The position numbers and the translations under genes are program-made. From the NCBI GenBank assembly GCA_035643335.1, contig DASQQR010000033.1, forward strand, positions 1-28,237: a stretch of DNA of 28,237 bases, given 5' to 3'. Below, in pieces: positions 9,047 through 11,087 of this stretch. The notes beneath the pieces are model-generated. The model was not told the DNA's origin, searched no databases, and was given only the letters and a program-made list of their open reading frames with translations. Numbering within the stretch: position 1 is the first letter of the stretch; each line of letters opens with the position of its first letter. Origin of the DNA: Anaerolineales bacterium (GTDB taxonomy: Bacteria; Chloroflexota; Anaerolineae; Anaerolineales; UBA4823).

Positions 9047-9793
9047 CTAGGGATTGTTGGCAGTATTGTTATAGAACCAATTGTAAGCGAAGTAACCTGA
9101 GGTTGGGCTTTGGAGGCGGATGGCGATCTGGCGAGAGCCCTTGAGCGAGGTGGGGATATCGTAAGTGAGGGTCTTGGTGCCACCCTTGCCAGAATCGGTG
9201 GTGGCTACCTTGATGCCGTTGATGCCGCGGGTGCCCATGGCTCCCATGGTGACCGTAAAGGAATCGTTGGGCGGAAGATTACTGGTCCTGATGGTGACGG
9301 TTTGATCCCGCTCGACGCTGACGATCGAGAAGGTGGGGAAGCCAGTGTAACCCGGCCTGGGTGTAGGCGATGGTCCCGGGGTCGGGGTGGGGCCGGGAGT
9401 GGCGGTTGCCGCGCCAGTGGTATTGTTATAGAACCAGTTATAGGCAAAGTATCCCGAACCCGTTGTGCTTTGGAGGCGGATGGCGATTTGGAAGGAACCC
9501 TGCAAAGTGGCTGGAATCGTGTAAGTCTTCTGGAAGGTTCCGCCGTCTCCCGAATCGGTGGTGGCTACCTTGATTCCGTTAACGCCGCGCGTTCCCATAG
9601 CTCCCATCAACACCTTAAATGTGTCGTCGGCTGGAAAGTTAAAGGTTTTGATCGTAACCGTCTTGTCACTCACCACGCTGACGATTGAAAATGTGGGGAT
9701 GGTCCCGGAAGCAGAGGCCGGCGTGATGGAGGGCCAGACTGCCAGGGGTACCAACAGAATCAATAGCATGAGTGCAGCAGTAAGGTATTTCAT
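9047..9793 (-). CDS. Secreted protein with two tandem ~93-aa unnamed domains joined by a Pro/Thr linker
   Basis: Signal peptide (MKYL-hydrophobic-ASA) and RBS AGGAGA. Residues 33-125 and 153-244 are clearly homologous (PTFSIVSV...MGAMGTRG.NGIKVATTDSG.GG...IAIRLQS..GYFAYNWFYNNT). Confidence 0.9.
   Translation of the reverse strand: MKYLTAALMLLILLVPLAVWPSITPASASGTIPTFSIVSVVSDKTVTIKTFNFPADDTFKVLMGAMGTRGVNGIKVATTDSGDGGTFQKTYTIPATLQGSFQIAIRLQSTTGSGYFAYNWFYNNTTGAATATPGPTPTPGPSPTPRPGYTGFPTFSIVSVERDQTVTIRTSNLPPNDSFTVTMGAMGTRGINGIKVATTDSGKGGTKTLTYDIPTSLKGSRQIAIRLQSPTSGYFAYNWFYNNTANNP
9062..9697 (-). repeat. Intragenic direct duplication (approx. 9419-9697 and 9062-9337)
   Basis: DNA-level repeats are visible, e.g. 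TATTGTTATAGAACCA at 9063 and 9421, and GCTTTGGAGGCGGATGGCGAT in both copies. Confidence 0.85.
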
Positions 9794-9971
9794 AGCATTC
9801 TCCTGGAAAATATATAAGTCGATGAAGCAAATTGTGGTTTAACCCGCCGTTTACTTCGCCGGTTGGTTTGAGGTACCACTTGAAATGATAAAAAATTTGA
9901 GCGATCAAGTGCTACCTGCATATAAATATACATTAAAATTCCAGGAAATGCAACAGGTTAAGCGCGCTGGG

Positions 9972-10048: not shown

Positions 10049-10322
10049 AGGTCAAAAAGGGGTTTCCGCTAGAAAAACGAATGGAAACGAATGGGCGAAA
10101 TTTCGAAGATTAAGGGCTGGTTAAGCACATCGAAAATGAACAGATGTCTGAAAATGGGGGAGACGAGGGCGAGATTGGGCCATAAAAGGGTGAGAAAGGG
10201 GGAATAGAGGGGGATACCAGACTATTTTCGTGCCAACTTGTAGGTAGGGGCGAATCGCTGAAAACAGGCATTTTAAGCGTTACTTAATATTCCGGCAAAA
10301 AAACGAATGCCAATTTTGGGCC

Positions 10323-10580
10323 TTAGTGGACATTTCCGGACGCTTTTGAGAGTTCCTCTCCCGCTACGAACTCTGGACAACCCAGCCTTTGTATCCCATG
10401 TTCCCTCATAGCATGATTGCGGCAGTCGATGCGATGATTAAATATATGCCCACACACTTTGCAGCGATACCGGACAAGCACAAAATCGTCTTGACTGGTG
10501 TCCGGGTGATTCGCTTCGATGTGATTGGCAGCGTCGACTGTGCTGTAGAAGTATGATCCACACTGACTGCATCTATACAT
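10323..10580 (-). CDS. Small protein with two classical C2H2 zinc fingers
   Basis: Y-x-C-x2-C-x3-F-x8-H-x4-H occurs twice (C4/C7/F11/H20/H25 and C40/C43/F47/H56/H61). Strong RBS AGAGGAGG, 10 nt upstream of the ATG. Confidence 0.85.
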   Translation of the reverse strand: MYRCSQCGSYFYSTVDAANHIEANHPDTSQDDFVLVRYRCKVCGHIFNHRIDCRNHAMREHGIQRLGCPEFVAGEELSKASGNVH

Positions 10581-10623
10581 GGCAGAACAACCTCCTCTAA
10601 TGCTAAATTCTCAAAAATAAGGG

Positions 10624-10669
10624 GGTTGTGTGTTCGAAATGCACCTAGGTGCATTTCGAACACACAACC
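10624..10669. repeat. Perfect 46-bp loopless palindrome (family 1, copy A)
   Basis: GGTTGTGTGTTCGAAATGCACCT|AGGTGCATTTCGAACACACAACC is self-complementary at every position. GTAG lies at its foot on the minus strand (CTAC 10669-10672). Confidence 0.9.
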
Positions 10670-10674
10670 TACAT

Positions 10675-11004
10675 TCAGTATTTTAGATCTTCTCTGACCG
10701 GCGTAAAAATATCCAGGACCCGGGCAGGGTTTTCTCCAGATTTTGCGCTGTGCTCGACCTGGGCTGGGATGAGATAAACATCACCGGCGCGCAGGCGCTG
10801 CCTCTCTCCGGCAATGACGAACTCAATTTCCCCAGAGAGCACCGTGCCAGCTTGTTCGTGAGGGTGTTGGTGTGAGGGGACTGTGGAGTTGGGATCGAAG
10901 GTCACGACGGCCAACATCAGAGACTCTCCCCAAAAGGTGCGTGCCTGCACTCCAGGCGCCAATTCTTTGGTTTGCCTTTGATCAGGATCGTGGTAGTAGT
11001 CCAT
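10675..11004 (-). CDS. Cupin domain protein
   Basis: Cupin motifs PSHQHPHEQAGTVLSG and GDVYLIPAQVEH. RBS AAGGAGG. Confidence 0.92.
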   Translation of the reverse strand: MDYYHDPDQRQTKELAPGVQARTFWGESLMLAVVTFDPNSTVPSHQHPHEQAGTVLSGEIEFVIAGERQRLRAGDVYLIPAQVEHSAKSGENPARVLDIFTPVREDLKY

Positions 11005-11045: not shown

Positions 11046-11087
11046 GGTTTTAGGTTCAAATGCACCGGTGCATTTGAACCTAAAACC
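11046..11087. repeat. Perfect 42-bp loopless palindrome (family 1, copy B)
   Basis: GGTTTTAGGTTCAAATGCACC|GGTGCATTTGAACCTAAAACC is fully self-complementary and homologous to 10624-10669. Confidence 0.9.

Follow-up and report, generated by a model that had tools for sequence, protein, structure and literature searches.

The zinc finger gene and its neighbours

The window analysed here is a stretch of 28,237 nucleotides from an Anaerolineales bacterium that is known as a MAG (78% complete), and the single sequencing run holding this stretch is of soil metagenome DNA. On the minus strand, at 10323..10580, the open reading frame translation gives a gene for a protein of 85 amino acids with two C2H2 zinc fingers (stop codon at 10323–10325), and a Shine-Dalgarno sequence, GAGGAGG, can be read off the same strand at 10591..10597, 10 nt before the ATG. 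The motif Y-x-C-x2-C-x3-F-x5-(A/C)-x2-H-x4-H occurs at residues 2–25 and 38–61, as Y2-x-C4-x2-C7-x3-F11-x5-A17-x2-H20-x4-H25 in finger 1 and as Y38-x-C40-x2-C43-x3-F47-x5-C53-x2-H56-x4-H61 in finger 2. The helix positions -1/2/3/6 are S/V/D/N in the first and H/I/D/N in the second finger, and the linker that joins them, PDTSQDDFVLVR, has 12 amino acids and is partly β-strand in the predicted model. The initial annotation of this DNA had given the exact spacing with its structural aromatic residues, the helix residues and a 12-residue linker different from TGEKP, and the translated reading frame bears it out in every listed detail. The protein can be divided into unit 1 (residues 1–36; 10473..10580, minus strand), an acidic finger of pI 4.3 with the predicted ligands C4, C7, H20 and H25 and a third strand at residues 33–36, and unit 2 (residues 37–73; 10362..10472, minus strand), a basic finger of pI 9.3 with the predicted ligands C40, C43, H56 and H61, a Cys53/Cys68 pair and a third strand at residues 70–73. 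A C-terminal tail (residues 74–85; 10326..10361, minus strand) is variable, has low model confidence and is missing from most homologues.

Several lines of evidence show that the gene is genuine and, judged from sequence comparison, under purifying selection, as the initial annotation had supposed from the strong ribosome binding site. A strict C2H2 regular expression applied to the 4.9 million six-frame open residues of the whole 3.8-Mb genome gave just two matches, and since both lie within this reading frame the finger pattern is not due to chance. A word-indexed search found five close relatives, and a phmmer search of 1.84 billion representatives returned 163 matches, of which about 25 are full-length small proteins of 73–95 amino acids. 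In an alignment of 25 homologue clusters (32–69% identity) the eight zinc ligands are the sole invariant columns. Among the orthologues from three genera, which all begin with MY[KR]C, synonymous sites are saturated (pS 0.80–0.90) while pN amounts to 0.26–0.40.

Directly upstream of the zinc finger gene lies a candidate partner, a gene for a 109-amino-acid protein of the Cupin_2/AraC_binding type (10675..11004, minus strand). Downstream, a gap of 530 nt separates the zinc finger gene from a gene for a secreted protein with two repeats of about 95 amino acids (REP2; 9047–9793, minus strand), which has no Pfam or NCBIfam match. Of 61 Anaerolineales relatives 45 have this protein, where it often carries additional repeats. 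Between the cupin and zinc finger genes a perfect palindrome of 46 bp (10624..10669) is found, which is followed by a T-run and thus is terminator-like on the minus strand. A related perfect palindrome of 42 bp lies on the other side of the cupin gene (11046–11087). A dispersed repeat of about 265 bp (10052–10316) occupies part of the 530-nt gap, between the stop codon of the zinc finger gene and the promoter of the next gene, and a GTTGAA-rich stretch abuts and partly overlaps it.

DNA elements around the gene

The initial annotation had connected the zinc finger protein with unusual DNA structures nearby, and this connection is not supported, because the palindromes and the GTTGAA-rich stretch are insertions specific to the source genome and missing from every orthologous locus. 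The two palindromes are loopless and bracket the cupin gene. They were considered as a dispersed family or as the target of the zinc finger and were rejected in both roles, since their core has only two copies in the genome and the orthologous loci do without them. Comparison of these loci shows that the 46-bp palindrome is not a conserved part of a cupin/zinc finger module. The GTTGAA region was likewise dismissed as an element linked to the zinc finger, as the adjoining 265-bp repeat has 15 copies in the source genome (68–85% identity) and none in 40 relatives, including members of the same genus. This repeat has conserved ends, CTAGAAAAACGAATGGAAACGAAT and AAAAAAACGAATA, and a purine-rich plus strand, and it gave neither an Rfam match nor a convincing consensus RNA fold. 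Upstream of the two-repeat gene, at 9794–9935 and thus beyond the 265-bp repeat, a promoter-like TTGCAw-N17-TGTATATT is conserved in the genomes G000, G001, G021, G029 and G005. A tie between the zinc finger and the secreted repeat protein was rejected too, given the occurrence of the latter in so many relatives and the same, unchanged promoter in a syntenic genome that lacks the zinc finger gene. From these sequence comparisons none of the palindromes, the repeat and the REP2 promoter is tied to the zinc finger.

Classical C2H2 fingers in a bacterial protein

Concerning its structural identity, the protein consists almost certainly of two tandem classical C2H2 fingers with a ββα fold, as judged from sequence profiles and the predicted model. 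Both fingers have the ligand spacing C-x2-C-x12-H-x4-H and thus fall within C-x2-4-C-x12-H-x3-5-H, and the family profile matches solved zinc finger arrays at E-values of 4.7e-23 (Aart), 5.3e-20 (ZFP568) and 2.4e-14 (CTCF), with two-finger alignments that are significant by themselves. The long matches of the phmmer search include a fly protein, and the search therefore reaches eukaryotic multi-finger ZNF proteins. The assignment of the initial annotation to the TFIIIA type rather than to Ros/MucR is supported by the x12 spacing of both fingers and by the fit of the family profile to eukaryotic arrays. A check against Pfam, which it had proposed, gave a divided answer: the single sequence stays below threshold for PF00096 (18.8 bits, cut-off 25.2) and PF13894 (14.6 bits, gathering score 27), whereas the family profile fits classical fingers at the E-value given for Aart. 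Several relatives carry precomputed PF00096/PF13894 matches. Within the hydrophobic triad Y2/Y38 and F11/F47 are present, and helix position 4 is Ala17/Cys53 rather than Leu, with Cys at this position in 15 of 25 relatives.

The protein shares with eukaryotic tandem C2H2 arrays, such as CTCF, ZFP568 and the designed Aart, the ligand spacing, the aromatic positions and the ββα fold. It differs from them in having two fingers only, an added third strand, Cys or Ala instead of Leu at the helix core position and, in place of a TGEKP-like linker of 5–7 residues, the 12-residue strand linker described above. Ros and MucR also place a Cys2His2 zinc site in a small bacterial protein. Ros has C-x2-C-x9-H spacing, with x3-4 before the last His, and a larger globular βββαα domain, in contrast to the x12 spacing and classical fold found here, and ROS_MUCR is absent among the Pfam matches listed for the protein. 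A further candidate is DUF7128 (PF23447), an archaeal family of small zinc finger proteins whose model is positive in Haloferax and Methanocaldococcus. The protein scores 27.8 bits against its cut-off of 25.7, but the match covers residues 38–56 only, that is profile positions 13–31 (19 of 44). Some relatives carry the same match, a genome-wide search with the DUF7128 model does not recover the gene, and on this sequence evidence the protein appears only marginally to belong to DUF7128. The description of the protein as undescribed stands insofar as no characterised family contains it, and it has to be qualified insofar as IMG already names relatives automatically as 'uncharacterized C2H2 Zn-finger protein'.

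Predicted structure and internal duplication

Structure prediction, proposed in the initial annotation, returned two ββα fingers: the AlphaFold2 model on the 25-sequence alignment has a pLDDT of 89.1 and a pTM of 0.71. It comprises a strand at residues 2–4, a helix at 14–24, a strand at 33–39, a helix at 50–61, a strand at 70–73 and a weak tail, so that a hairpin plus helix, each with a predicted zinc site, occurs twice. Strand 33–39 closes unit 1 as its third strand and opens finger 2 as its first, and since the one continues into the other, the two units are predicted to pack as a single compact body and not as separate beads on a string. Foldseek retrieved zinc finger arrays exclusively. 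Single fingers superpose at 1.3–2.0 Å on fingers of ZFY, ADR1 and Miz-1, while the whole model fits arrays at about 9 Å and DNA-bound tandem fingers at 7–9 Å.

An aligner independent of Foldseek ranked AFV1p06 (2LVH) first, matching residues 34–73 with Z 4.8 and an rmsd of 1.2 Å over 40 residues, and the low-rmsd matches in BFVD are the AFV1 and AFV2 zinc finger ORFs. According to the published study of AFV1p06, it is a classical finger to which a loop and a third strand are added as a novel extension; sub-micromolar concentrations suffice for it to bind dsDNA, and the authors identified no homologue in bacteria (PMC3541406). In the model a third strand of this type follows a long loop in both units (strands 33–39 and 70–73), and together with the best match this suggests that each unit is an AFV1p06-like extended finger. 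AFV1p06 (ORF59a of Acidianus filamentous virus 1, PDB 2LVH) is likewise a small stand-alone protein with the classical fold, a long loop and a third strand. It comes from a crenarchaeal virus and has a single finger, in which Glu stands at the position of ligand four. In contrast, the protein studied here is encoded on a bacterial chromosome, carries co-varying Cys pairs and consists of two full C2H2 units that are fused by having one strand in common. The likeness is structural, and 2LVH is not among the 60 matches listed in the sequence search with the family profile. On the predicted model, the protein is structurally closest to AFV1p06, as a bacterial, tandem and rigidly coupled variant with no characterised member.

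Comparison of unit 1 with unit 2 by hhalign gave a probability of 98.8% and an E-value of 1.1e-16 over 35 columns, from which the two units are concluded to have arisen by internal duplication. In each of the two units a Cys at helix position 4 and a Cys 7–8 residues after the last His are both present in 15 sequences of the alignment, both absent in 10 and mixed in none, although the related sequences inflate these counts. The protein itself has the Cys pair in unit 2 alone (Cys53/Cys68), with A17/F33 at the corresponding positions of unit 1, while Cys17/Cys33 is present in most relatives. This pattern points to a direct contact of the two residues, which may be either a disulfide or core packing.

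Distribution and descent

Homologues within an already described, widespread bacterial family would, by the initial annotation, have spoken against its reading, and the homologues found do not fall into such a family. The gene is found in 4 of 137 species genomes of the GTDB family (3 of 55 genera). In a sample of 400 genomes of the class no full-length homologue was found, and a sample of 400 genomes of the phylum gave one distant relative of 61 amino acids and otherwise no full-length homologue. About 20 metagenomic clusters belong to the family, with members on contigs of, for example, 205 kb and 4.96 Mb. PF00096 is positive in 12 of 401 Chloroflexota genomes and above the cut-off in six of them (a weak match in genome G589 was left out of the analysis), and classical fingers are therefore sporadic in Chloroflexota and not unique to the source genome. 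Two further candidates were discarded as relatives, L006 as a spurious weak match antisense to a kinase gene and L002 as a protein with CxxC pairs that lacks the C2H2 pattern.

Other proteins with C2H2 fingers were also found. In Anaerolineae a second family of classical C2H2 proteins (L011 1294–1602 in G408 and L012 1207–1626 in G347) combines a single basic finger at the N terminus (PF00096, 29.8 bits) with an acidic linker and a C-terminal segment that is conserved. The L011 gene sits between two large genes, and the upstream one encodes a 456-amino-acid protein that by eye is portal-like, so that the region may be a prophage. Genome G465 encodes three paralogous proteins of 233–300 amino acids (L078, L089 and L092) in which a Tat-like signal and a single finger of the C2H2 pattern occur together with several Cys clusters like those of ferredoxins. 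The three proteins resemble exported electron-transfer subunits carrying a zinc finger motif.

At all genomic and metagenomic loci that were read, the gene order is Usp, UbiB-like ABC1 kinase, the cupin where present, zinc finger and secreted two-repeat protein, followed by MurE on the other strand, and the zinc finger gene occupies the same chromosomal slot in three genera and five metagenome contigs. The related genome G005 has this order without the cupin and without the zinc finger gene. The MurE tree places G029 together with G000 and G001 (support 92/85), and it pairs G021 with G005 (95/87). This fits a single origin followed by loss in G005, with vertical inheritance in a small group of Anaerolineales genera rather than recent transfer, and vertical descent with loss is favoured because the slot between the kinase and the repeat-protein genes is constant. 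The initial annotation had considered the gene as possibly horizontally acquired, and eukaryotes, giant viruses or archaeal viruses could be imagined as donors in a recent transfer, given the very patchy distribution, the slightly lower GC content of the gene (0.49 compared with 0.53–0.58 in its neighbours) and look-alikes in feature space that include clusters from Nucleocytoviricota and Nitrososphaerota. However, such a transfer is very improbable in view of the conserved syntenic position and of the MurE tree and common gene order just described. Moreover, the orthologues have diverged to 45–64% identity across loci with saturated synonymous sites, no mobile-element genes adjoin the locus, and IMG/VR viral contigs contained no relative of the protein. 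In PHROGs weak matches at most were obtained.

The cupin neighbour

The 109-amino-acid cupin scores 66.9 bits with Cupin_2 and 32.7 bits with AraC_binding and has weak similarity to the cupin domain of PuuR. It lies immediately upstream of the zinc finger gene in G000, G029 and metagenome loci (with a gap of 23 nt in L025), and in the five related genomes checked it was found nowhere but beside the zinc finger gene. In G001 a remnant of 26 codons just upstream of the zinc finger orthologue (L007 3900–3977) has 81% identity to residues 83–108 of the cupin, and L025, a close metagenomic relative of this locus, keeps the whole cupin. In G021 it is missing. In G725, which belongs to another Chloroflexota family, the gene for a 119-amino-acid cupin (L073 1124–1483; AraC_binding 28.6 bits, 23% identity to the 109-residue cupin) is separated by 2 nt from the gene downstream, which encodes a two-finger classical C2H2 protein of 61 amino acids (L073 1486–1671; PF00096 43 bits). 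Both cupins exceed the AraC_binding cut-off. A congener of G725 (L075) has the same pair, and genus g490 (L076) has a zinc finger gene of the 61-residue type without a recognisable cupin. Cupin matches number about 13 in G000 and about 6 in G725, and the chance of a cupin as immediate upstream neighbour, by rough estimate, is a few per thousand per lineage. This low expectation in two lineages suggests that the adjacency points to a functional link. In a cursory look no cupin was seen beside other Chloroflexota C2H2 genes.

Possible functions of the two-finger protein

Considering sequence and model together, we tentatively prefer the reading of the protein as a small regulator in which finger 2 would contact DNA and the acidic finger 1 would contact a protein, plausibly the cupin sensor, while giving this reading less than an even chance. 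According to this proposal, the small cytoplasmic two-finger protein would act as a regulator together with the adjacent cupin; the basic finger 2 would bind nucleic acid, most likely double-stranded DNA, finger 1 would offer a protein-contact surface, e.g., for a ligand-sensing cupin, and both proteins would form a split analogue of AraC or PuuR, the regulators that join a cupin to a DNA-binding domain. The resemblance to AraC/PuuR-type regulators lies in the possible mode of working alone, an AraC_binding-type cupin adjoining a putative DNA-binding module; in contrast to these regulators the parts are two separate genes, and the candidate DNA-binding part is a zinc finger instead of a helix-turn-helix. 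In finger 2 the usual phosphate-contact positions are occupied by basic residues: Arg precedes the first Cys, helix position 5 is Arg or Lys, and a further Arg stands between the two histidines. The residues of this finger are well conserved (H49 22/25, D52 22/25, R/K54 21/25, N55 23/25 and R59 20/25), and among them His, Asp and Asn at helix positions -1, 3 and 6 form what is the DNA-reading face in classical fingers. The pI values of the two units together with this conserved face favour a regulator with a DNA-contacting finger 2. On the other hand, the whole protein is near neutral (pI 6.6) with finger 1 acidic throughout the family, its rigid strand linker differs from DNA-wrapping TGEKP arrays and the superposition on DNA-bound tandem fingers is poor as given above, a protein with two fingers reads few bases, the region upstream of the gene gave no conserved operator-like motif, and the gene survives without the cupin in G021, G001 and G935. 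In addition, the 'recognition' helices are acidic and a neighbouring cupin is missing in other small Chloroflexota proteins with two C2H2 fingers. That the classical zinc finger is a DNA-reading head and the cupin its ligand sensor, in a two-gene regulator kept in at least two distant Chloroflexota lineages, is distinctly doubtful.

A pure protein–protein adaptor or modulator, i.e., a zinc finger micro-protein that binds the cupin or another protein and never nucleic acid, is rather unlikely in itself and nearly as likely as the regulator, because the charge is neutral, the tandem is rigid and non-wrapping, a conserved operator is missing and the helices of other bacterial two-finger proteins are acidic. 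The net charge, neutral to acidic with a strongly acidic finger 1, and the compact body of the model agree with such a role, the authors of AFV1p06 proposed the face of its three-stranded sheet as a protein-interaction surface (PMC3541406), and the one-domain zinc finger micro-proteins of Haloferax have pleiotropic roles that are reportedly not clearly linked to DNA (PMC6562870). What speaks for DNA instead is the basic finger 2, with its canonical phosphate contacts and conserved polar residues on the reading face of the helix, and the DNA binding of AFV1p06 as the closest solved analogue. Two further possibilities carry less weight, namely RNA binding and a role connected with redox state or zinc. 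RNA binding in the manner of the zf-met/JAZ-type fingers for double-stranded RNA would agree with the wide spacing of the fingers and their long linker, which is also how dsRNA-binding fingers are arranged, and with the precomputed zf-met (PF12874) or zf-C2H2_jaz (PF12171) matches of several family members. It is nevertheless improbable, as the protein has no zf-met/jaz match among its best 25 Pfam rows, the His spacing is x4 where x5 is typical of the zf-met/JAZ class, and no structured RNA was found nearby. The perfect co-occurrence of the Cys pairs and the content of 13 Cys and His among 85 residues (7 His, 6 Cys) would also suit a redox or zinc sensor or buffer, in which Cys17/Cys33 of most relatives and Cys53/Cys68 of this protein would form disulfides reversibly and thereby switch the fold or set zinc free. 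This role is quite improbable, since hydrophobic residues (A/F, V/V, V/I) can take the place of either pair while the remainder of the protein stays conserved, as would be expected of core packing rather than of an essential switch, and the relatedness of the sequences makes the counts overstate independent events.

Significance and perspective

The current literature still describes classical C2H2 fingers as almost lacking in bacteria and as little characterised in archaea. The value of the present case is moderate, as automated pipelines already label relatives as C2H2 proteins and the function is proposed by inference only. It nevertheless provides a clean and conserved bacterial example of classical C2H2 fingers, and it adds a predicted tandem, rigidly coupled form of the three-stranded AFV1p06-type finger, of which a single structure, from an archaeal virus, was known before. 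The co-varying cysteine pairs are open to test as disulfides or packing, and the recurrent cupin neighbour supplies a concrete functional hypothesis. If this hypothesis is true, the two-gene module would be the first described class of bacterial transcription factors built on the classical C2H2 fold, and the AFV1p06-type extended finger would be common to bacteria and archaeal viruses.
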